This document shows, one piece after another, positions 1 to 7,781 of a stretch of DNA of 7,781 nucleotides. Below the pieces are notes generated by a model that was given only the letters and a program-made list of their open reading frames with translations, did no database searches and was not told the DNA's origin. The translations under genes and the position numbers were made by a program. The stretch's first letter is position 1. Every line of letters starts with the position of its first letter. Location: positions 1 to 7,781 of IMG/VR virus record IMGVR_UViG_2513020041_000001. One strand, written 5' to 3'. Source of the stretch: a virus (Monodnaviria; Loebvirae; Hofneiviricota; Faserviricetes; Tubulavirales).

Positions 1-1269
1 ATGACTCCAACCAGTTCCGATCTGGTCAGAAATGCCGCTGAGGGCTCAGGCGGCGCAGCCGCCCTAGGTAGTATTGCGAAATGTTCTTCCCCCCCCCCTC
101 CGAAGGCAATGAGGGCCCAAAGATACCAAGCTCTTTCTCAGGCTCGGATCTGGTTAAAACCCTTGGCTGTCAAGGATCCCACCAAGCCTTACGGGTGGAA
201 ATTGCACCGCACGCAAGACTGCCGCTATAAGCGGATCGGCATCGGCGTCACCGTGCATAAAGACATCAAGCATCAGACCGCTTTTTACGGCGATGTAGCC
301 ACCTGTGGCTCCGTGTGGGCTTGTACCGTGTGCTCGGCAAAAATTCAGACTCGTCGACGTCCAGAGGTACAGCAGCTGGTCGATTGGGCTTACGAGAACG
401 ACTATCAGGTCACCATGATTACGTTCACGTTCCCGCATCTGGCATTTGATCGCCTGAAGGAACTGCTCGATGGCCAGAAACGCGCCTTTGAGATCCTCCG
501 CGGCGGTAGCCCATGGGTGAAGTTCAAGCAGCGTCACGGCCTTATCGGCTTTGTGCGCTCTCTGGAGGTCACTCACGGCGATAACGGCTGGCATCCTCAC
601 ACCCATGAGCTTTGGATCACCAAGGGGCTCACAGCCACGAATATGGCCACTTTCGAGAGCGGTATCCGCAAGCGGTGGCGGACTTCCTGCATCCAAGCTG
701 GTTTGCTCGATGAAACCTCGAAGGCGCAACTGTTCGCGTTCGATCTGCACTCGGTCGATTTTCAGTTTCAGGTGTCCACCTCTGACTACCTCGTCAAGAT
801 GGATAACGCGCGCAAATGGGGTGTCGATGCTGAGATGACGGCTCAAGCGTCAAAGGTTGGTGGTGATCGCGTCACGAAGACCATTCACCCCCATGAATTC
901 CTGATGCGTCGCGCACCTGGTGATGATGCCCGCTACCGCGAATACGTAACGGGCATGCATGGGAAAAGCCAGCTGTTCTGGTCTCAGCGCCTAAAAGACG
1001 CCTGCGGCGTAGAGCATGTGACTGACGAAGAGATTGCCAAGGAACAAACCGAAAAAGCGGATCTGCTAGCTCACCTGACCGACAGTCAATGGCGTGTCGT
1101 TCGTGGAAACGATGCCCTTGCTGAAGTGCTCGATGCTGCCGAGCTTGGTGGCTGGCCTGCTATCCGCTCCCTGCTGAAATCGCTTGGCTGCGAGATTCTC
1201 GAGACGGATTGTCATGATCCATTTTTCGAGGTCAATCGTGTTCTTTTCGCTCCAGACGAGCAGGTCTAG
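1..1269 (+). CDS. Rolling-circle replication initiator (HUH endonuclease, gII/RstA-like Rep), 422 aa
   Basis: Long ORF with the three HUH motifs in canonical order: motif 1 MITFTFP (nt ~415-435), motif 2 GWHPHTHELWI (nt ~589-621), motif 3 SDYLVKM with catalytic Tyr and Lys three residues on (nt ~784-801). It is the first gene of the unit, upstream of the ssb and coat genes as in filamentous phages. The N-terminal 36 aa are low-complexity (Ser/Gly/Ala/Pro) and include the C10 tract; the true start could be the internal Met at nt 109. Confidence 0.8.
   Translation: MTPTSSDLVRNAAEGSGGAAALGSIAKCSSPPPPKAMRAQRYQALSQARIWLKPLAVKDPTKPYGWKLHRTQDCRYKRIGIGVTVHKDIKHQTAFYGDVATCGSVWACTVCSAKIQTRRRPEVQQLVDWAYENDYQVTMITFTFPHLAFDRLKELLDGQKRAFEILRGGSPWVKFKQRHGLIGFVRSLEVTHGDNGWHPHTHELWITKGLTATNMATFESGIRKRWRTSCIQAGLLDETSKAQLFAFDLHSVDFQFQVSTSDYLVKMDNARKWGVDAEMTAQASKVGGDRVTKTIHPHEFLMRRAPGDDARYREYVTGMHGKSQLFWSQRLKDACGVEHVTDEEIAKEQTEKADLLAHLTDSQWRVVRGNDALAEVLDAAELGGWPAIRSLLKSLGCEILETDCHDPFFEVNRVLFAPDEQV
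1..1269. repeat. Direct repeat copy 1 (identical to 6513-7781): terminal redundancy of a 6512-bp unit
   Basis: Sequence 1-1269 matches 6513-7781 base for base on inspection, and the ORF track gives identical 422-aa translations and identical embedded ORFs for both copies. Confidence 0.95.
89..98 (+). repeat. C10 homopolymer tract in the 5' end of rep (encodes SSPPPP); second copy at 6601-6610
   Basis: Ten consecutive C residues counted at 89-98 and again at 6601-6610. Confidence 0.9.
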
Positions 1270-1426
1270 CAGCAGTTCTTTCGAGGACTTCGTCATATCG
1301 TTTGCTCCTTTCCAGCAGGTATTCCAATGCCTGCGTATGCGTGCAGTCCATCTCAACCTCAAGCATTTTGAGTTGAGTCCAGACTTCCTTTGAAACCGAG
1401 ATGTTTTTAAGCCGATCAGTGGCCAT
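1232..1426 (-). CDS. Ribbon-helix-helix (CopG/Arc-like) transcriptional regulator, 64 aa
   Basis: Minus-strand ORF MATDRLKNISVSKEVWTQLKMLEVEMDCTHTQALEYLLERSKRYDEVLERTAARPARLERKEHD. It has the RHH pattern of a short N-terminal beta-strand with alternating hydrophobics (RLKNISVS) followed by two helices (WTQLKMLEVEM, THTQALEYLLER), closely resembling CopG-type repressors. ATG is the rc of 1424-1426, with GGAG about 10 nt upstream on the minus strand. It is convergent with rep (38-bp 3' overlap) and divergent from the ssb gene. Confidence 0.55.
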   Translation of the reverse strand: MATDRLKNISVSKEVWTQLKMLEVEMDCTHTQALEYLLERSKRYDEVLERTAARPARLERKEHD

Positions 1427-1588: not shown

Positions 1589-1861
1589 ATGTCAGAAAAT
1601 ATCGTCGCAACCATTGAATTTACCGGCCTGAACAAGACCGGCACTTCCATGAAGTCCGGCACACCTAAGCCATGGTGGCGGCTTGGCGCGTACGTGAAAG
1701 TCCCCGGCCTGCTCCATCCGCAAGCTATCGAATTTTTCACCTCGGAAGTGACTCAGGTTCAGCCTGCAGGCAAGTACGAGGCTCCCTGCATCACTCGAAT
1801 TCAGGACGGAAAAATCACTGTTGAGCCTGATCTTTCTCAGCTCAAAGCGGTTCGCGCCTGA
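1589..1861 (+). CDS. ssDNA-binding protein (gV-like), 90 aa
   Basis: ATG at 1589 preceded by RBS aaagga (1575-1580). Small (90 aa) basic/aromatic-containing protein placed between rep and the major coat gene, the canonical gV position. The ORF-track extension back to 1445 lacks an RBS and overlaps the regulatory repeats. Confidence 0.6.
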   Translation: MSENIVATIEFTGLNKTGTSMKSGTPKPWWRLGAYVKVPGLLHPQAIEFFTSEVTQVQPAGKYEAPCITRIQDGKITVEPDLSQLKAVRA

Positions 1862-1965
1862 TGCCAGCGCTTGCTGATATGCCCGAGCTGGTATCAGCGA
1901 TCGTGCTTCTGTGGGCCACAGCTTGGTGCCTTAAACAAATACTTAATGCCATCAAAAAATTGTGA
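1861..1965 (+). CDS. Small hydrophobic protein, 34 aa (pVII/pIX-like minor coat candidate)
   Basis: ATG at 1861 overlaps the ssb stop (tgATG). Encodes MPALADMPELVSAIVLLWATAWCLKQILNAIKKL with a single hydrophobic helix, and ends 8 nt before the major coat start. Size and position match pVII/pIX of Ff-type phages. No own SD, so translational coupling would be required. Confidence 0.35.
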   Translation: MPALADMPELVSAIVLLWATAWCLKQILNAIKKL

Positions 1966-1972
1966 GGATCAC

Positions 1973-2230
1973 ATGCAAAAAGCTCTGTTTGTTCGCGCTG
2001 GAAATACTTGGTTCCGTCGCTCTGCAACTGTTGCCACTGGTGCGGCAATCATGATCGCTTCCGGTCTCGCTTCTGCTGCTGGTGAGACTCCTGAAGGCGG
2101 TGTCGACTCGGCGGCTGTCGTCGATCTGATCAAGGCTGCCGGTGTGACTGTCGGTGTTGTAGGTGTTGCTTGTATGGGTGTCTACCTGGCGCTGAAAGGC
2201 TTCCAGTGGGCTCGCTCCGCGATCAAGTAA
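1973..2230 (+). CDS. Major coat protein precursor (pVIII-like), 85 aa
   Basis: ATG at 1973 with RBS gagga (1964-1968). N-terminal signal-like segment ending ...ASGLASA, then a mature part with acidic N-terminus (ETPEGGVDSAAVVD), hydrophobic core (AAGVTVGVVGVACMGVYLAL) and basic C-terminus (KGFQWARSAIK), which is the defining pVIII architecture. Followed immediately by a strong intrinsic terminator. Confidence 0.8.
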   Translation: MQKALFVRAGNTWFRRSATVATGAAIMIASGLASAAGETPEGGVDSAAVVDLIKAAGVTVGVVGVACMGVYLALKGFQWARSAIK

Positions 2231-2241
2231 AGGGCGTACTC

Positions 2242-2276
2242 GCTCACTAGGGGGCTCAGTGAGCTCCCTTTTTTTT
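2242..2276 (+). terminator. Rho-independent terminator after the major coat gene
   Basis: Stem gctcact (2242-2248) / agtgagc (2258-2264) with a 9-nt GC-rich loop, followed by tccc and a T8 run (2269-2276). Confidence 0.7.
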
Positions 2277-2310
2277 GAGAATTTCCTATGGAAACTACGC
2301 AGGCGATCTT

Positions 2311-3459
2311 ATGGAACATAGAGCCATCCTTGGTTTACTTGTTGGCGGTTTGTGGTGCGTTCTGGATTCTTTTTCGCAGCTAGCTTCTGCGGCAGTTGAA
2401 ATTAACGTTGTACCTTTAGCAAATGGTACCTATGGCAAAGTTGTTGGCATTACAAATATTTCGCCATCAGGAAGCGCTACCGCCGTTGTTCAAGCTAAAG
2501 ATAAATTCGGTAATCTGGTTAATCGCTCTAGGACGCTTACCGCTAATCCGGCCAAATATGGCGCTTGGGCGCGTACTGCTATGCGCAGGATTCCCGCCGT
2601 TCAAATTGCCTTAGCTGCTGCTGCTGTTGCTGCTGGTTATTTGGTTACTCAAACTACTGATGAGTTTGGACAGGTAGGTTACGATATTTATAAACCCGGC
2701 TCTTCTTTGCCCGGGCTTGATGTTGAATGTCCTACTAACTCTGTATCTGTGCCTAATCCATCTGGTGTTGGCAACGTTCAGGCTTTTATCCCTACACCTT
2801 GCTATAACACTCGTTATTCAAACTACAGAGAATATTGGACTACTGAGCCATCTGCCGAACTGCAAGTGTGGGCTGGCTCAAATAGCCCTAATGTAGTCAC
2901 TCGTTGGCAATCTACATCTGTATCAATTCCACCCACACAGAAGCCTACGTATATTTATAAGCGCGGCATTAGCGCATCAAATCCTGAGAATAAACCTACT
3001 GTTCAGCGTGTTCCTGCTACAGATAGTGATTTAACTACTTGGGGTTTTCAGTCCCCTGACTCTGTTCAAGAAGCACCTGGGAAATTTCCAGATGTTTGGA
3101 ATCCCCTCCCGTGGGAAGAAACCGCTTCTGATGATGAGGTTGTTAACCCTCCGACTCAGCCCGGAGAAAGCACAGAAGATCCTGATTACGACCCCTGCGA
3201 AGGAGATTGTGCTGATTCTTCCGACCTCGATCATTCGGTTTTAGACCTCTCTTCATATCTCAAATGGGGGGAGGGCTGGATGCCTAGGCAGTGTCCCGCA
3301 CCGGTGCTTATTTACCAGTTCAACAACACGCCGGATGGGCAAGGTTGGTTCGATTTCTCTTACATATGCAGCGTTATGACTGATTTTGTATCCCCGTTCA
3401 TGCGAATTGCTGGCTTGTTCTTTTTCGTCCGCATTGTTGTAGGAGGTATGCGTGAATAG
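2311..3459 (+). CDS. Minor coat / adsorption protein (pIII-like), about 382 aa
   Basis: First gene after the coat terminator. N-terminal signal-like hydrophobic segment (MEHRAILGLLVGGLWCVLDSFSQLASA), an acidic Pro/Asp/Glu-rich linker (EETASDDEVVNPPTQPGESTEDPDYDP), Cys pairs and a C-terminal hydrophobic anchor (FMRIAGLFFFVRIVVGG). The ORF-track start at 2275 is a TTG inside the terminator T-run; ATG 2311 is preferred, but the start is uncertain. Confidence 0.6.
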   Translation: MEHRAILGLLVGGLWCVLDSFSQLASAAVEINVVPLANGTYGKVVGITNISPSGSATAVVQAKDKFGNLVNRSRTLTANPAKYGAWARTAMRRIPAVQIALAAAAVAAGYLVTQTTDEFGQVGYDIYKPGSSLPGLDVECPTNSVSVPNPSGVGNVQAFIPTPCYNTRYSNYREYWTTEPSAELQVWAGSNSPNVVTRWQSTSVSIPPTQKPTYIYKRGISASNPENKPTVQRVPATDSDLTTWGFQSPDSVQEAPGKFPDVWNPLPWEETASDDEVVNPPTQPGESTEDPDYDPCEGDCADSSDLDHSVLDLSSYLKWGEGWMPRQCPAPVLIYQFNNTPDGQGWFDFSYICSVMTDFVSPFMRIAGLFFFVRIVVGGMRE

Positions 3460-3739
3460 CTTGCTTAAGATTTTTGGCGTTGAATCAATCCGACACCTGG
3501 TCATCAAGACAATTTCCAGTCTCGGTATTGGGGTGATGAGCTATCAGGGACTTAATATTTTGCTTGGTATGATCACTGATCAAGTCATGCAAAACTTTAA
3601 CTCTTTGCCTGTGTCTGTTCTTTCCATCATGGGACTTGGCGGTCTCGATCACTTTATCAATATTGTTCTTTCAGCTTATTCGGCCCGCTTTGCCATGGCA
3701 TCCATTAAGAAATTTAGAATGATGGGCGCTGCTACATGA
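3452..3739 (+). CDS. Minor coat / membrane protein (pVI-like), 95 aa
   Basis: GTG start at 3452 with strong RBS aggagg (3441-3446), overlapping the pIII stop. The product is highly hydrophobic with multiple predicted TM segments; size and position (between pIII and pI) match gVI. Confidence 0.55.
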   Translation: MNSLLKIFGVESIRHLVIKTISSLGIGVMSYQGLNILLGMITDQVMQNFNSLPVSVLSIMGLGGLDHFINIVLSAYSARFAMASIKKFRMMGAAT

Positions 3740-4638
3740 TTCATTTAATTACCGGCGCACCTGGAACGGGAAAATCTCTGCTTGCTGTAGAGATTATTTT
3801 GGATAATTCATTATCTGAAAATCCGCGGCCTATTTTTTCCAACATCAACGGTTTGGACTTTGAGAAGCTGCGCTGCTTTCCTCTTGATAATCCTGAGGAG
3901 TGGCATACCTATCCAGTTGGTTCGCTGCTGGTAATTGATGAATGCCAACGCTATTTCCCACCTCGACCGAACGGGAGCAAGGTTCCGCAGAACATTGCAG
4001 AATTTGAAACCCATAGACACCATGGCCTTGACATCATTCTGTTAACTCAACATCCAACGTTTATTGATGCCAATATCAGAAAGCTTGTTGATCGTCATCA
4101 GCATGGGTTTCGTCCTTTTGGTAAAAAACGTCGGACTCTTCTGGAGTGGACAGGTTGCAATGACAATCCTGAGCCTGCGAAGAATGAATCTAATTCCTTG
4201 CAGAAGCGTAAGCCTTTTGATCCAAAGCTTTTTCAATATTACAAAAGTTCATCTCAGCATACTGATAAGGACCGTACGCCTTGGGCTAAAGTTCTTTTTC
4301 CTTTTGTTATGTTGGTTTTGGTTGTAGTTGCTTTCGGATTTGCATTTTATCGCTTAAGTCCGTCAAAGCCTGAATCGGTTAATTCTAAATTTGATAATTC
4401 AGTTAAAACGGTTGATAAACAGGCAGTCATTCCTACTGCTTCTTATGTAGGTTTTTTCCGTTCTGACAATGGCTTGCCTGCAACAGTGCTTGTTAAGGAC
4501 GGTTCAAATGGTTTCTACCGCGTTGATTATGATTCTTGGAATGTTGCCGGACCTCAGGTGAGCTTTTTTAAGGCAGATTCAACAACGCCCGTGCTTCGGG
4601 TTTCTTCATTAATTTTGGCAAAACTTATACAGGAGTAG
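3736..4638 (+). CDS. Zonula occludens toxin-like assembly ATPase (pI/Zot family), 300 aa
   Basis: ATG 3736 overlaps the upstream stop (ATGA). N-terminal Walker A GAPGTGKS, Walker B-like LLVIDECQ, an internal TM helix (VLFPFVMLVLVVVAFGFAFY) and a C-terminal periplasmic domain, which is the Zot/pI architecture. Confidence 0.8.
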   Translation: MIHLITGAPGTGKSLLAVEIILDNSLSENPRPIFSNINGLDFEKLRCFPLDNPEEWHTYPVGSLLVIDECQRYFPPRPNGSKVPQNIAEFETHRHHGLDIILLTQHPTFIDANIRKLVDRHQHGFRPFGKKRRTLLEWTGCNDNPEPAKNESNSLQKRKPFDPKLFQYYKSSSQHTDKDRTPWAKVLFPFVMLVLVVVAFGFAFYRLSPSKPESVNSKFDNSVKTVDKQAVIPTASYVGFFRSDNGLPATVLVKDGSNGFYRVDYDSWNVAGPQVSFFKADSTTPVLRVSSLILAKLIQE

Positions 4639-4696: not shown

Positions 4697-5932
4697 ATGA
4701 AAAAACTGATCGCATTCACGTTTTTGATACTGTCTGGATTAGCTCACGCTGAAAACCTGACGCTTTCCTATGATCAAGTGCCCGTCACTCAGCTCCTAGT
4801 CGAAACCTACCGTAATCGACTTGAGAAATCATATGTCATTGACCCCAGCGTTGTTTCCAACAACAGTCTTGTTTCTATTAATGTTCGCGATCTTCCAATT
4901 GAGAGATTGGAATCTACTGTTGATAGCATCCTTAAAACTGCTGGTATCAATAAGGTAGTTGGTTCCGATGGGCTCATTCTTTTCAGCGCTCGCTCATATG
5001 ATTATGCAAACTCTCTCCCTCCCGTTCCAGCTTCTGTTGCTTCTCCTGGTATGGCATCGCTAGGCGCTGATCTTCCACCGGATATCCCTCTTCAAAATGG
5101 GAGTATTCCGGATAACTTCACCATTTTTCTTGCTCATAATCGGCCAACTTCTTTTTTACAGCCAATTGCCAATAAATTGCTTGGTACCAATTACGAACCT
5201 TCCGACCAGGTGTTTTTGTCGGGGGATGCCAAGCAGGTTGAAAAAGTGCGGTTCATCCTGGAGCAGCTCGACACCGCTCCGAATGAAATCATGGCTCAGG
5301 CTGTTGTTCTCGAGTTCTCAACCCAGCGTGTGAAAGGGTCCAGTTTTGAGATGGCAATCTCTGCTTTGTCCGGCCACCTTAAAATCGGTGTTGATTCCTT
5401 GCTCCCTGCCGGTGGGAATTTCATCAAGTGGTCTTCCACGGATCTGACTGCCGTCCTTTCTGCCGTATCCGGTGATTCTCGTTTTCATGTTGTTTCGACT
5501 CCAACGCTGCGCGTTGTTAGTGGTGGTACTGGTCGCCTGTTGGTTGGTCAGGAAGTGCCTACCCTGTCGTCTTCGTCTCTCGATAATTCAGGCAATGCGG
5601 TGCAGTCGATTGAGTACCGATCCGCAGGTGTGATCATGGAGCTGAAGCCCACCATTCTCCGTAATCGTATTGACCTGGAGCTGAATCAACAGATTTCCGA
5701 TTTCGCTCAAAACAATCTTTCTGGCATCGATTCTCCGACGCTGACTAAGCGTGAGTTGACCACCAAAATTTCGGCCCAGCCGGGGGAGCTGATTGTGCTT
5801 GGCGGGCTCGATCAGACGAAAAAAACAGATCAGAGCCGAGGCCTGTCGTTCCTTCCGTCCTTCATGGGCGGTAGCTCTTCAACTGACGCAGATACCCAGA
5901 TCCTGCTGGTTTTGCAGGTAACGAAAATATAG
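4697..5932 (+). CDS. Secretin (pIV/GspD-like outer-membrane export channel), 411 aa
   Basis: N-terminal signal peptide MKKLIAFTFLILSGLAHA. The C-terminal half carries secretin-domain signatures (VVSTPTLRVVSGGTGRLLVGQEVP, EYRSAGVIMELKPTI, GELIVLGGLDQTKKTDQSRGLSFLPSFMG, TQILLVLQVTKI) matching the conserved pattern of phage pIV and T2SS GspD. Confidence 0.8.
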   Translation: MKKLIAFTFLILSGLAHAENLTLSYDQVPVTQLLVETYRNRLEKSYVIDPSVVSNNSLVSINVRDLPIERLESTVDSILKTAGINKVVGSDGLILFSARSYDYANSLPPVPASVASPGMASLGADLPPDIPLQNGSIPDNFTIFLAHNRPTSFLQPIANKLLGTNYEPSDQVFLSGDAKQVEKVRFILEQLDTAPNEIMAQAVVLEFSTQRVKGSSFEMAISALSGHLKIGVDSLLPAGGNFIKWSSTDLTAVLSAVSGDSRFHVVSTPTLRVVSGGTGRLLVGQEVPTLSSSSLDNSGNAVQSIEYRSAGVIMELKPTILRNRIDLELNQQISDFAQNNLSGIDSPTLTKRELTTKISAQPGELIVLGGLDQTKKTDQSRGLSFLPSFMGGSSSTDADTQILLVLQVTKI

Positions 5933-5988: not shown

Positions 5989-6159
5989 ATGGCAAATCAA
6001 TCCGCATCATCCGAAAAAATGCTTAACGTGAAGGTTCCCGAGGATCTCAAGCAGTCTTTTACGCTGGCTGTTGGGGCTCAAGATCAGACCGTTTCCCATG
6101 TCATCCGCGACTTCATGCGCAAATATGTCGCCCAACATGGTCAGGGGAAGCTGCTGTGA
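5989..6159 (+). CDS. Ribbon-helix-helix DNA-binding protein, 56 aa (absent from the ORF track)
   Basis: ATG 5989 with near-consensus SD aaggagg 8 nt upstream, stop TGA 6157-6159. Translation MANQSASSEKMLNVKVPEDLKQSFTLAVGAQDQTVSHVIRDFMRKYVAQHGQGKLL shows a beta-strand (LNVKV), helix A (PEDLKQSFTLAVGA) and helix B (QTVSHVIRDFMRKYV), the RHH fold pattern. Confidence 0.6.
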   Translation: MANQSASSEKMLNVKVPEDLKQSFTLAVGAQDQTVSHVIRDFMRKYVAQHGQGKLL

Positions 6160-6323
6160 ATATACTTCCGGTCACCCCTGCTTCTGCCGTGGCAAGCGCT
6201 GTCACGTGCCCTTCGTTTTCCCTTGACCCGTCCGTGGTCGTCCTCGCCCTTTTTCTGCCCTTTGTCCTTGTAGGGGCTTACTACCTTTTCCGGCTCGCCA
6301 AGGCTGATCTTCGTGGATTGTAA
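6156..6323 (+). CDS. Small single-pass membrane protein, 55 aa (absent from the ORF track)
   Basis: GTG 6156 overlaps the RHH stop (GTGA), with SD-like gggaag (6145-6150) 5 nt upstream. Translation MNILPVTPASAVASAVTCPSFSLDPSVVVLALFLPFVLVGAYYLFRLAKADLRGL has one hydrophobic helix followed by a basic C-terminus. Stop TAA 6321-6323 is followed directly by a hairpin. Confidence 0.45.
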   Translation: MNILPVTPASAVASAVTCPSFSLDPSVVVLALFLPFVLVGAYYLFRLAKADLRGL

Positions 6324-6325
6324 AG

Positions 6326-6374
6326 CCGGTTCTAGACGCCTGAATGGCTTCATCTTTCAGGTGGCTAGAACCGG
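6326..6374. promoter_or_regulatory. Hairpin: 10-bp perfect inverted repeat with 29-nt loop at the start of the intergenic region
   Basis: ccggttctag (6326-6335) / ctagaaccgg (6365-6374). It begins 3 nt after the stop of the small membrane-protein ORF. Confidence 0.5.
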
Positions 6375-6382
6375 AATCGATC

Positions 6383-6423
6383 TTTCTGTAGACCAAATTT
6401 CGTAGACGTACTTTTTCGTAGAC
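6383..6423 (+). repeat. Three iteron-like direct repeats, TTTC(T)GTAGAC
   Basis: tttctgtagac (6383-6393), tttcgtagac (6398-6407), tttcgtagac (6414-6423), spaced about 14-16 bp apart in the same orientation, upstream of rep. Confidence 0.55.
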
Positions 6424-6447
6424 AAAAAAAAGGCCCCATGAGGGGCC
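6424..6447 (-). terminator. GC hairpin flanked by an A8 run (T8 on the minus strand): terminator-like on the minus strand, or an origin/packaging hairpin
   Basis: A8 (6424-6431), stem ggcccc (6432-6437) / ggggcc (6442-6447), loop atga. Read on the minus strand this is a 6-bp GC stem followed by T8, the canonical intrinsic-terminator shape. On the + strand no T-run follows. Confidence 0.4.
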
Positions 6448-6512: not shown

Positions 6513-7781
6513 ATGACTCCAACCAGTTCCGATCTGGTCAGAAATGCCGCTGAGGGCTCAGGCGGCGCAGCCGCCCTAGGTAGTATTGCGAAATGTTCTT
6601 CCCCCCCCCCTCCGAAGGCAATGAGGGCCCAAAGATACCAAGCTCTTTCTCAGGCTCGGATCTGGTTAAAACCCTTGGCTGTCAAGGATCCCACCAAGCC
6701 TTACGGGTGGAAATTGCACCGCACGCAAGACTGCCGCTATAAGCGGATCGGCATCGGCGTCACCGTGCATAAAGACATCAAGCATCAGACCGCTTTTTAC
6801 GGCGATGTAGCCACCTGTGGCTCCGTGTGGGCTTGTACCGTGTGCTCGGCAAAAATTCAGACTCGTCGACGTCCAGAGGTACAGCAGCTGGTCGATTGGG
6901 CTTACGAGAACGACTATCAGGTCACCATGATTACGTTCACGTTCCCGCATCTGGCATTTGATCGCCTGAAGGAACTGCTCGATGGCCAGAAACGCGCCTT
7001 TGAGATCCTCCGCGGCGGTAGCCCATGGGTGAAGTTCAAGCAGCGTCACGGCCTTATCGGCTTTGTGCGCTCTCTGGAGGTCACTCACGGCGATAACGGC
7101 TGGCATCCTCACACCCATGAGCTTTGGATCACCAAGGGGCTCACAGCCACGAATATGGCCACTTTCGAGAGCGGTATCCGCAAGCGGTGGCGGACTTCCT
7201 GCATCCAAGCTGGTTTGCTCGATGAAACCTCGAAGGCGCAACTGTTCGCGTTCGATCTGCACTCGGTCGATTTTCAGTTTCAGGTGTCCACCTCTGACTA
7301 CCTCGTCAAGATGGATAACGCGCGCAAATGGGGTGTCGATGCTGAGATGACGGCTCAAGCGTCAAAGGTTGGTGGTGATCGCGTCACGAAGACCATTCAC
7401 CCCCATGAATTCCTGATGCGTCGCGCACCTGGTGATGATGCCCGCTACCGCGAATACGTAACGGGCATGCATGGGAAAAGCCAGCTGTTCTGGTCTCAGC
7501 GCCTAAAAGACGCCTGCGGCGTAGAGCATGTGACTGACGAAGAGATTGCCAAGGAACAAACCGAAAAAGCGGATCTGCTAGCTCACCTGACCGACAGTCA
7601 ATGGCGTGTCGTTCGTGGAAACGATGCCCTTGCTGAAGTGCTCGATGCTGCCGAGCTTGGTGGCTGGCCTGCTATCCGCTCCCTGCTGAAATCGCTTGGC
7701 TGCGAGATTCTCGAGACGGATTGTCATGATCCATTTTTCGAGGTCAATCGTGTTCTTTTCGCTCCAGACGAGCAGGTCTAG
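6513..7781 (+). CDS. Rolling-circle replication initiator (second, identical copy of 1-1269)
   Basis: Identical 422-aa translation to the ORF at 1-1269, with the same HUH motifs. ATG 6513 has no obvious SD upstream (gggatattctagc), which adds to the doubt about the true start (alternative Met at 6621). Confidence 0.8.
   Translation: MTPTSSDLVRNAAEGSGGAAALGSIAKCSSPPPPKAMRAQRYQALSQARIWLKPLAVKDPTKPYGWKLHRTQDCRYKRIGIGVTVHKDIKHQTAFYGDVATCGSVWACTVCSAKIQTRRRPEVQQLVDWAYENDYQVTMITFTFPHLAFDRLKELLDGQKRAFEILRGGSPWVKFKQRHGLIGFVRSLEVTHGDNGWHPHTHELWITKGLTATNMATFESGIRKRWRTSCIQAGLLDETSKAQLFAFDLHSVDFQFQVSTSDYLVKMDNARKWGVDAEMTAQASKVGGDRVTKTIHPHEFLMRRAPGDDARYREYVTGMHGKSQLFWSQRLKDACGVEHVTDEEIAKEQTEKADLLAHLTDSQWRVVRGNDALAEVLDAAELGGWPAIRSLLKSLGCEILETDCHDPFFEVNRVLFAPDEQV
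6513..7781. repeat. Direct repeat copy 2 (identical to 1-1269)
   Basis: Exact duplication of window positions 1-1269, extending to the window end. Confidence 0.95.

Follow-up and report, generated by a model that had tools for sequence, protein, structure and literature searches.

The locus described here raises the question of how a filamentous phage with only one tiny gene between the genes for its single-stranded DNA-binding protein (ssb) and its major coat protein (coat) supplies the small proteins of the leading virion end. In Ff phages, pVII and pIX are present in about five copies at the leading virion tip and bind the packaging signal. An earlier note on this DNA compared the single gene with the gVII and gIX genes of Ff phages and suggested that either one protein does both jobs or the second cap protein is encoded elsewhere, with a 55-aa membrane protein as one candidate. 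Our comparative analysis shows that the phage encodes two tiny membrane proteins, each with a single predicted helix, and that their genes flank the coat gene. With regard to the start of assembly, many non-Ff inoviruses are said to lack gIX, and often pVII as well, and alternative packaging factors have been proposed (bioRxiv 10.1101/2023.12.30.573655; 10.1101/2024.03.19.585677).

Genome organization and relatives

The window, that is, the whole stretch of DNA analyzed (7,781 nt), has identical ends: bases 1-1269 are repeated at 6513-7781. We therefore consider it to be one complete circular genome of 6,512 nt with a terminal overlap. The genome is that of a small non-integrating, Pseudomonas-type filamentous phage (inovirus). 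Every gene in the window is on the plus strand, and the gene order is Rep, ssb, p34, coat, terminator, mini-ORF2, g3p, g6p, Zot/g1p, secretin, RHH and p55, as follows.

1-1269, plus strand: Rep (Rep_1)
1589-1861, plus strand: ssb, gV-like single-stranded DNA-binding protein, 90 aa (PF17878, E 5.5e-7)
1861-1965, plus strand: p34, predicted 34-aa single-pass membrane protein (ORF; conservation in relatives; phrog_4644, phrog_9110)
1973-2230, plus strand: coat, major coat protein precursor, 85 aa (PF05356, Phage_Coat_B, E 1.7e-5; phrog_2374, E 5.6e-16)
2249-2277, plus strand: Rho-independent terminator downstream of coat, 9-bp GC-rich stem and T8 (terminator scan and fold)
2288-2383, plus strand: mini-ORF2 (mini2), 31 aa, unannotated (ORF; kept in L003, L004 and L002; selection signature)
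2311-3459, plus strand: g3p-like adsorption protein, 382 aa (conserved ATG; homologues; position upstream of the DUF2523 g6p)
3452-3739, plus strand: g6p-like minor coat protein, DUF2523 (PF10734, E 5.2e-17; phrog_1242)
3736-4638, plus strand: Zot/g1p
4697-5932, plus strand: secretin
5989-6159, plus strand: RHH protein
6156-6323, plus strand: p55, hydrophobic 55-aa ORF with a GTG start, downstream of the RHH gene (ORF)

The stem and the T-run of the terminator are kept in the relatives. The g3p-like protein has a canonical signal peptide (MEHRAILGLLVGGLWCVLDSFSQLASA|AVEINV), and the codons of this peptide are shared with mini-ORF2. Its ATG is conserved in all relatives, where the homologues are 76-97% identical, and its identity as g3p fits the position ahead of the DUF2523 g6p, which is the partner of g3p at the terminating end.

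The lineages compared with the window (L003, L004 and L002/L013/L014) were recovered via homologues of g3p and coat. The p34, g3p, g6p, Zot and secretin genes are common to the window and L002, L003, L013 and L014. The ssb gene and the replication module of L002 and L003 (Phage_CRI/G2P_X_C with an HTH repressor) differ from those of the window, and L004 is the sole relative with the RHH/Rep_1 replication module of the window. Near-identical copies of the genome (contigs of ~6.5 kb) are present in at least six unrelated samples, and a relative with the same structural module is located on a 78-kb Pseudomonas lundensis contig. Among GenBank phages, nucleotide similarity was found to Pseudomonas phage PMBT54 only, and there in the ssb region only (80%). 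When IMG/VR was scanned, the queries ssb, g6p and p34 found L002 alone. A tblastn search of p34 against phages gave no match, and phmmer of p34 against 1.84 billion representatives returned only the self-match.

A single small gene between ssb and coat

The p34 gene extends from an ATG at 1861-1863 to a TGA at 1963-1965 (34 codons; product MPALADMPELVSAIVLLWATAWCLKQILNAIKKL) and fills the 111-nt gap between ssb and coat. The overlap of its start with the ssb stop is exactly as described earlier (TGA at 1859-1861, junction TGATG). Its own stop sits within the Shine-Dalgarno sequence of the coat gene (GTGAGGATCACATG), the ATG of which is at 1973. The earlier claim of a single mini-gene at this position is also borne out, as the gap contains no further conserved ORF. 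Two further ORFs touch the gap, one that extends the coat frame to a TTG at 1871 and one with a GTG start at 1962-2054. Each is missing from at least one relative, and both were dropped as gap genes.

An ORF of 32-34 codons corresponding to p34 is kept in L003, L004 and L002/L013/L014, its ATG always being placed on the ssb stop (TGATG or TAATG). This junction is the same in L002 and L003 despite their different ssb and replication module. Across the lineages, variable sites are distributed over the three codon positions as 13/6/19, and all length changes comprise whole codons. Gene callers predict p34 in some copies of the same phage and not in the relatives. Judged by its conservation, p34 is a real gene and more than a chance ORF, and its translation is likely to be coupled to that of ssb, because it starts on the ssb stop.

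The p34 product has one hydrophobic stretch with an acidic N-terminal flank (charge -2) and a basic, lysine-rich C-terminal tail (+3). It matches the profiles phrog_4644 (E 1.6e-4) and phrog_9110 (E 2.8e-3), and its homologue from L002 matches the same two profiles with E-values of 2.5e-8 and 1.2e-5, respectively. Pf3 ORF58, the founding type of phrog_9110, matches both phrog_9110 and phrog_4644 (‘tail protein’). It shares with p34 the start on the ssb stop and the position directly upstream of the coat gene, and p34 can be aligned with its C-terminal helix (LLWATAWCLKQI versus LLSATAWGIQQI; shuffle z 4.9-6.3). In contrast to ORF58, p34 has no N-terminal ectodomain of ~25-40 residues, and it covers the ORF58-type profile in the C-terminal half only. 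Since the alignment is confined to profile positions 37-67 of 71, p34 is a truncated form, and by its relationship to phrog_9110, phrog_4644 and Pf3 ORF58 it is a minimal variant of the slot proteins that are common among Pseudomonas inoviruses.

One gene in the ssb-coat slot is normal in non-Ff inoviruses, as exemplified by Pf3 ORF58 and PMBT54 ORF6. In PMBT54-like phages the slot contains a protein of 74-75 aa (phrog_4800), annotated in GenBank as a second ‘ssDNA binding protein’; the PMBT54 protein consists of an ectodomain, a helix and a basic tail, as do Pf3 ORF58 and PA0722. The Pf phages differ from the window in having two genes in this slot. In Pf1/Pf4 these are PA0721 (PfsE, 30 aa, ‘gVII’) and PA0722 (83 aa, ‘gIX’), which encode small membrane proteins between ssb and coat, as p34 does. 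Neither PA0721 nor PA0722 has significant similarity to p34 or mini-ORF2.

A second small gene overlapping the 5' end of g3p

The second small ORF, mini-ORF2, starts with an ATG at 2288, only 11 nt past the T-run of the coat terminator, and is the first gene after this terminator. It ends with a TAG at 2383 and comprises 31 codons for a hydrophobic product (METTQAILWNIEPSLVYLLAVCGAFWILFRS) with flank charges of -2/+1 and the C-terminus FRS (FR in L002). Codons 1-24 of g3p are overlapped in another frame, so that position 3 of g3p codons is position 2 of mini-ORF2 codons, and the wobble position of the mini-ORF2 frame is position 1 of g3p. L003, L004 and L002 retain the ORF, its frame relative to g3p and the TAG stop, which makes four lineages including the window. 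All indels among the four are multiples of three. In L002 the start is a GTG located 8 nt upstream of the g3p ATG. A search of genome and metagenome collections with a DNA pattern of the conserved overlap returned already-known loci only.

The pattern of substitutions in the overlap is unusual. In the three closer pairs of lineages, third positions of g3p codons differ in 0/22, 1/23 and 1/22 codons within the overlap (0-5%) and in 54-57% of codons outside it (Fisher p 7.6e-8, 6.8e-7 and 5.8e-7 for the three pairs), and the variation of first positions within the overlap is raised two- to five-fold. The numbers of variable columns at g3p positions 1/2/3 are 14/4/6 of 21 in the overlap versus 110/71/295 of 352 elsewhere. 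Among 1,104 sliding windows of 23 codons over g3p, g6p, g1p and g4p, position 1 varies more than position 3 in 11, all of them at the 5' end of g3p.

Read in the g3p frame, the overlap still specifies a canonical signal peptide in each of the four lineages, yet amino-acid changes accumulate freely; codons 1-24 of g3p can tolerate change because they encode only this peptide. The mini-ORF2 frame is the dominant protein constraint in the overlap, since a constraint on the nucleic acid would not shift the periodicity. By this substitution pattern, mini-ORF2 is a classical overprinted gene on g3p. The hydrophobicity of the overlapping frame is in part an automatic consequence of the T-rich second positions of signal-peptide codons. 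We consider it very probable that both p34 and mini-ORF2 are real protein-coding genes. The earlier idea of a second small protein with its gene at another place in the genome is upheld, with mini-ORF2 (2288-2383) in the place of the 55-aa ORF originally proposed.

Micro-genes between the coat terminator and g3p in other inoviruses

The first example met in another phage is an unannotated ORF of PMBT54 (MEQLYVFAFFVIGASCAFATFRGW) between the coat terminator and g3p. In PMBT54-like loci, fetched via coat homologues, a free-standing ORF of exactly 24 codons is present between the coat terminator and g3p in every locus. Each has its own Shine-Dalgarno sequence and a stop that is contiguous with the g3p start or overlaps it (TAAGTG, TAATG, TGATATG). 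Synonymous changes dominate in close pairs of these ORFs (5:0, 9:1, 9:3 and 8:5), and the 24-aa protein stays conserved while the adjacent g3p ranges from 317 to 483 aa. Judging from these changes, the 24-aa family evolves as a protein under purifying selection in its own frame, as does mini-ORF2 of the window clade. ORFs in the same slot of other phages are the following.

Ralstonia p12J and PE226: ORFs of 19 aa, MEGYFVLFAIAGAGWILFS and MEGYFVMLAFLGAAWILFS
Ralstonia RSS1: ORF6, 26 aa, annotated as ‘hypothetical’
MW202882 and blackswan219-1: similar ORFs upstream of g3p
Stenotrophomonas phiSMA9: a 49-aa coat-like protein and a 24-aa ORF

Most of the slot ORFs in these phages are preceded by a T-run and a GGAGG-type Shine-Dalgarno sequence. 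The ORFs of the PMBT54 type and those of RSS1 (ORF6), p12J, PE226, MW202882, blackswan219-1 and phiSMA9 all have a single hydrophobic helix and are the first ORF past the coat terminator, as is mini-ORF2. The micro-gene upstream of g3p (RSS1 ORF6-like) is characterized by a hydrophobic product, a length of 19-31 codons and a place between the coat terminator and the g3p start, and mini-ORF2 conforms to this description. The window clade differs in that mini-ORF2 runs over 24 codons of g3p, whereas the others end at the g3p start. Sequence similarity between the subgroups of micro-ORFs is weak or absent.

An HMM built from the four mini-ORF2 sequences of the window clade was compared with 3,093 six-frame fragments of 14 inovirus genomes. 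Rank 1 is the slot ORF of phiSMA9 with a marginal E-value of 0.023 (AvLWnvePSlVyLLavCGA versus SILVNIRPQLVV-MAICGA), and rank 2 is the slot ORF of p12J with a marginal E-value of 0.23 (LLavCGAFWILf versus LFAIAGAGWILF). Although the E-values themselves are marginal, these two ranks are unlikely to be due to chance, because the positions of the ORFs coincide. The 24-aa family of the PMBT54 type was not recovered with mini-ORF2 by hmmsearch of six-frame fragments, and hhalign gave a probability of 1% for this pair.

Unconfirmed candidate micro-ORFs were also noted in Pf1/Pf4, Pf3 and NEU2023. The one in Pf1/Pf4 (25 aa, GTG start) follows coaB and is invariant in four Pf phages. In Pf3 (23 aa) and NEU2023 (24 aa) the candidates extend over the g3p start, and composition alone can make an alternative frame of signal-peptide codons hydrophobic. 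Mini-ORF2 of the window clade has no similarity to the Pf3 and Pf1 candidates.

Comparison with pVII and pIX of Ff phages

With 34 and 31 aa, respectively, p34 and mini-ORF2 are about the size of Ff pVII and pIX (32-33 aa), and each has one hydrophobic helix. An acidic or neutral N-terminal flank and a basic C-terminal flank are found in all four proteins; the flank charges of M13 pVII are -3/+1, compared with -2/+1 in mini-ORF2. The set of pVII traits (~33 aa, one helix, an acidic N-terminus and a C-terminal arginine) is resembled by both mini-ORF2 and p34, as a resemblance only. The start of p34 on the ssb stop is comparable to gVII following gV, and mini-ORF2 has no such coupling to ssb. 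All four genes belong to the structural gene block. Unlike in Ff phages, the genes for p34 and mini-ORF2 are not adjacent: one precedes coat, and the other lies past the coat terminator and overlaps g3p.

No match of p34 or mini-ORF2 to the pVII profiles PF19978 (Inovirus_G7P_2) and phrog_7781 was found at E<=10, and the hhalign probability was at most 1%, whereas M13 pVII as a positive control matches both profiles (1.3e-21 and 4.6e-20). Likewise, neither protein matches the pIX profile phrog_10143 (hhalign probability 4% for p34 and 0.8% for mini-ORF2), which M13 pIX matches with 3e-26. A hint of similarity to pIX is seen only for the 24-aa family of the PMBT54 type (P 6e-4, probability 29%, 11 columns). 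Direct homology of p34 or mini-ORF2 to M13 pVII or pIX was rejected, as nothing in the Pfam and PHROG scans, the Smith-Waterman comparisons with shuffles or hhalign survives multiple testing. The comparison with gVII/gIX drawn in the earlier note therefore holds for size, topology and position (p34 follows ssb); sequence homology could not be shown by profile, pairwise or hhalign comparison. The likeness to Ff pVII and pIX, taken as an analogy, is one of size, predicted topology and position only.

Possible role of the two proteins in the leading cap

The genes for p34 and mini-ORF2 form part of the structural block and accompany it in combination with two different replication modules. In the solved Ff virions, pIII and pVI suffice for the pointy end, and two small helices are required at the round end (PMC10480500; bioRxiv 10.1101/2022.11.03.514279). 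Because g3p and g6p account for one end of the virion, p34 and the 31-aa protein as the pair of the leading cap seem to be the most economical reading.

We propose that p34, a shortened relative of the Pf3 ORF58-type proteins that has retained only the acidic N-terminal flank, the helix and the lysine-rich tail, could be produced by coupled re-initiation at the ssb stop. Mini-ORF2 is the first cistron of the low-expression g3p operon, just past the coat terminator. Both proteins, with flank charges of -2/+3 and -2/+1, are predicted to insert in the membrane with the N-terminus out and the C-terminus in. They may then serve as the pair of small helical subunits at the leading, round virion end, as pVII and pIX do in Ff phage, and their short basic C-termini could contact the packaging hairpin and lead to the start of assembly at the g1p/secretin complex. 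The ‘missing’ second mini-gene would thus not be lost but sit across the coat gene. By analogy with Ff phages, we consider the formation of the leading cap by p34 and mini-ORF2 quite possible, if short of probable; as an explanation of the whole locus, the combination of two real genes and a role in the cap is the best one available and, on balance, somewhat probable.

Other explanations have to be weighed at two levels, the genes and their function. The conserved 5' part of g3p could reflect a functional element of the nucleic acid (RNA or DNA), for example a regulatory site or a structure for translation initiation, in which case mini-ORF2 would not be a gene. The conserved region is indeed at a translation start just past a terminator, and the RNA of 2228-2320 folds somewhat better than its shuffles (z -2.4). 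This reading is nevertheless very improbable: a constraint on the nucleic acid would suppress variation at all three codon positions, whereas the variation has instead moved, with three-base periodicity, to the wobble position of the mini-ORF2 frame, the start, the stop and the whole-codon indels of mini-ORF2 are preserved, and its free-standing equivalents elsewhere evolve as proteins. The candidate of the earlier note, p55 (6156-6323), has next to no likelihood of being the second cap protein. In its favour are its hydrophobicity, a GTG start that overlaps the RHH stop, its prediction by gene callers in several copies of the same phage, and an ORF of similar character in L004, the only lineage with a homologue (60% aa identity). 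However, p55 belongs to the replication and regulation module and is absent from L002, L003, L013 and L014, which have the whole structural module of the window. Moreover, the differences between p55 and its L004 homologue are spread over the codon positions as 14/14/19, without the periodicity seen in the adjacent RHH gene (2/0/19). The lack of periodicity and the absence from relatives with the structural module make p55 a poor candidate for the cap, for which it was rejected. Possibly it is an accessory membrane peptide that evolves fast.

On the side of function, p34 alone could be the leading cap and do both jobs, and the micro-gene could work with g3p and g6p, as a membrane chaperone, an assembly partner or an extra subunit of the terminating end. 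The micro-ORF is located past the coat terminator in the g3p-g6p-g1p operon, and in most relatives its stop codon adjoins the g3p start or overlaps it (TAAGTG, TAATG, TGATATG or TGATG), which suggests co-translation with g3p in a fixed ratio. Such coupling could equally mean work with g3p and not at the opposite end. We regard this reading as unlikely given the composition of the two Ff virion ends cited above and the conservation of the 24-aa protein next to a g3p of such variable length; in addition, termination-reinitiation coupling to g3p cannot operate in the window clade, because the stop of the micro-ORF is ~70 nt inside g3p. One or both tiny proteins could also be non-structural membrane peptides that act on the host (superinfection exclusion, toxic or regulatory). 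The precedent is PfsE (PA0721), a superinfection-exclusion protein of 30 aa: its gene takes the gVII position in Pf1 and Pf4, and the protein blocks type IV pili (PMC8764522). Small hydrophobic proteins of the structural block may therefore have more than a structural role. Other small toxic peptides are encoded by Pf phages as well (PMC12328805, PMC11769263). A host-directed function seems decidedly unlikely here, as the location of the micro-ORF is shared by phages of three host genera (Pseudomonas, Ralstonia and Stenotrophomonas), whose g3p are unrelated and whose receptors differ, and a core role in the virion or its assembly therefore fits better than a host-specific accessory one. The structural and host-directed roles are not exclusive, since PfsE is still labelled a minor capsid protein (PMC12328805).

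Implications for the annotation of inovirus genomes

Beyond the window clade, we tentatively suggest that the micro-gene upstream of g3p could be a core structural gene that non-Ff inoviruses have in general and that has been overlooked; its product would be the leading-cap partner of the ssb-proximal slot protein. It would be free-standing in most phages and overprinted on the g3p signal peptide in the window clade. If true, this would resolve the puzzle of phages that ‘lack gIX’ (bioRxiv 10.1101/2023.12.30.573655; 10.1101/2024.03.19.585677). For the start of assembly in non-Ff phages, mini-ORF2 offers a concrete and testable candidate for the second cap subunit. An ORF in the slot was already known from the annotation of RSS1 ORF6, given there without interpretation; the overprinting on the g3p signal peptide, the evidence of selection and the suggestion of this slot as the source of the ‘missing’ cap partner are new.

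The micro-gene is routinely missed, as it is below or near the length limits of gene callers and, in the window, is hidden inside g3p. Overlooking it affects the annotation of inovirus genomes and inferences that a phage ‘lacks’ cap proteins. It also affects the design of fusions and knockouts at the 5' end of g3p, which would damage the overlapping gene too.

Exchange of modules among related phages

Comparison of the relatives L002, L003, L013 and L014 with the window and L004 showed that one structural module, comprising p34 (the 34-aa membrane-protein ORF between ssb and coat), mini-ORF2 (a 31-aa hydrophobic ORF overlapping the start of g3p), g3p, g6p, Zot and the secretin, is found with two unrelated replication modules:

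Replication module 1: Rep_1 and the ribbon-helix-helix gene (RHH)
Replication module 2: Phage_CRI/G2P_X_C and an HTH repressor

Two types of ssb also occur, and the start of p34 remains joined to the ssb stop whichever type is present.

Candidate small ORFs near g3p in other phages

Small ORFs near g3p were found in several other phages and are listed here together with the coat-like protein of phiSMA9:

L016 (Pf1) 1073-1150, also in L019-L021 (Pf4-like, PfAC04 and PfAC11): 25-aa hydrophobic candidate, GTG start, VLWSVWLGAFFAGAFITGYRTGEFF
L015 (Pf3) 348-419: hydrophobic candidate over the g3p start, alternative frame
L018 (NEU2023) about 2864-2938: hydrophobic candidate over the g3p start, alternative frame
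L028 (Stenotrophomonas phage phiSMA9) 6016-5867, minus strand: 49-aa ORF between coat and g3p
L028 about 6207-6069, minus strand: 45-aa coat-like protein

The VLWSVWLGAFFAGAFITGYRTGEFF candidate starts 3 nt past the coaB stop, in a region annotated as intergenic in Pf1. It is 100% identical, with zero variation, across the four Pf phages, and their g3p sequences diverge completely a few bases after it. The Pf3 and NEU2023 candidates are 23-24 aa long; the former lies in the same frame relative to g3p as mini-ORF2 of the window, whereas the latter occupies the other relative frame. For both, the composition of signal-peptide codons could have produced the hydrophobic frame as a by-product.

The best match to mini-ORF2 of the window is the N-terminal half of the phiSMA9 49-aa ORF. 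The same N-terminus (MDFDSIL in one, MDYESIL in the other) and general layout are seen in this ORF and in the coat-like protein of the same phage, which suggests a coat paralogue.

In Pseudomonas phage PMBT54 (L001), the 24-aa ORF preceding g3p (2660-2734) is without any annotation. ORF6 of this phage (2132-2356), a 74-aa membrane protein assigned to phrog_4800, is annotated as 'ssDNA binding protein', which is probably an annotation carry-over.

Intergenic region and minus-strand ORF

Additional elements of the window were located near Rep:

6326-6374: imperfect 49-nt hairpin, CCGGTTCTAG...CTAGAACCGG, intergenic, before Rep
about 6388-6423: three GTAGAC direct repeats with 14-16 nt spacing, between both hairpins
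6432-6447: GC hairpin GGCCCC ATGA GGGGCC, 3' of an A8 run
1232-1426, minus strand: 64-aa ORF overlapping the 3' end of Rep

The 49-nt hairpin is nearly unchanged between the window and L004, whereas the sequence on its flanks diverges. Folded as ssDNA, the region gives a z of -4.5, and the two hairpins are candidates for the packaging signal or origin. The GTAGAC repeats look like iterons; they are not kept in L004.

The 64-aa ORF weakly matches MatP_C/ribbon-helix-helix (E 0.0056). Gene calls include it in L004, L005, L007, L009 and L011, and it has an annotated counterpart in PMBT54 (ORF2). It is probably a small regulator encoded in antisense.

Genome topology and recurrence

Positions 1-1269 of the window match positions 6513-7781 with 0 mismatches, hence the genome is a circle of 6,512 nt written with a 1,269-nt overlap, and Rep is present twice solely because of this overlap. 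Copies of the genome with 0-2 substitutions (L031-L036, L005) were found in unrelated sequencing runs and in one NCBI assembly (GCA_000252565.1). The recurring phage is either a clone of very wide distribution or a Pseudomonas phage associated with laboratories or reagents.
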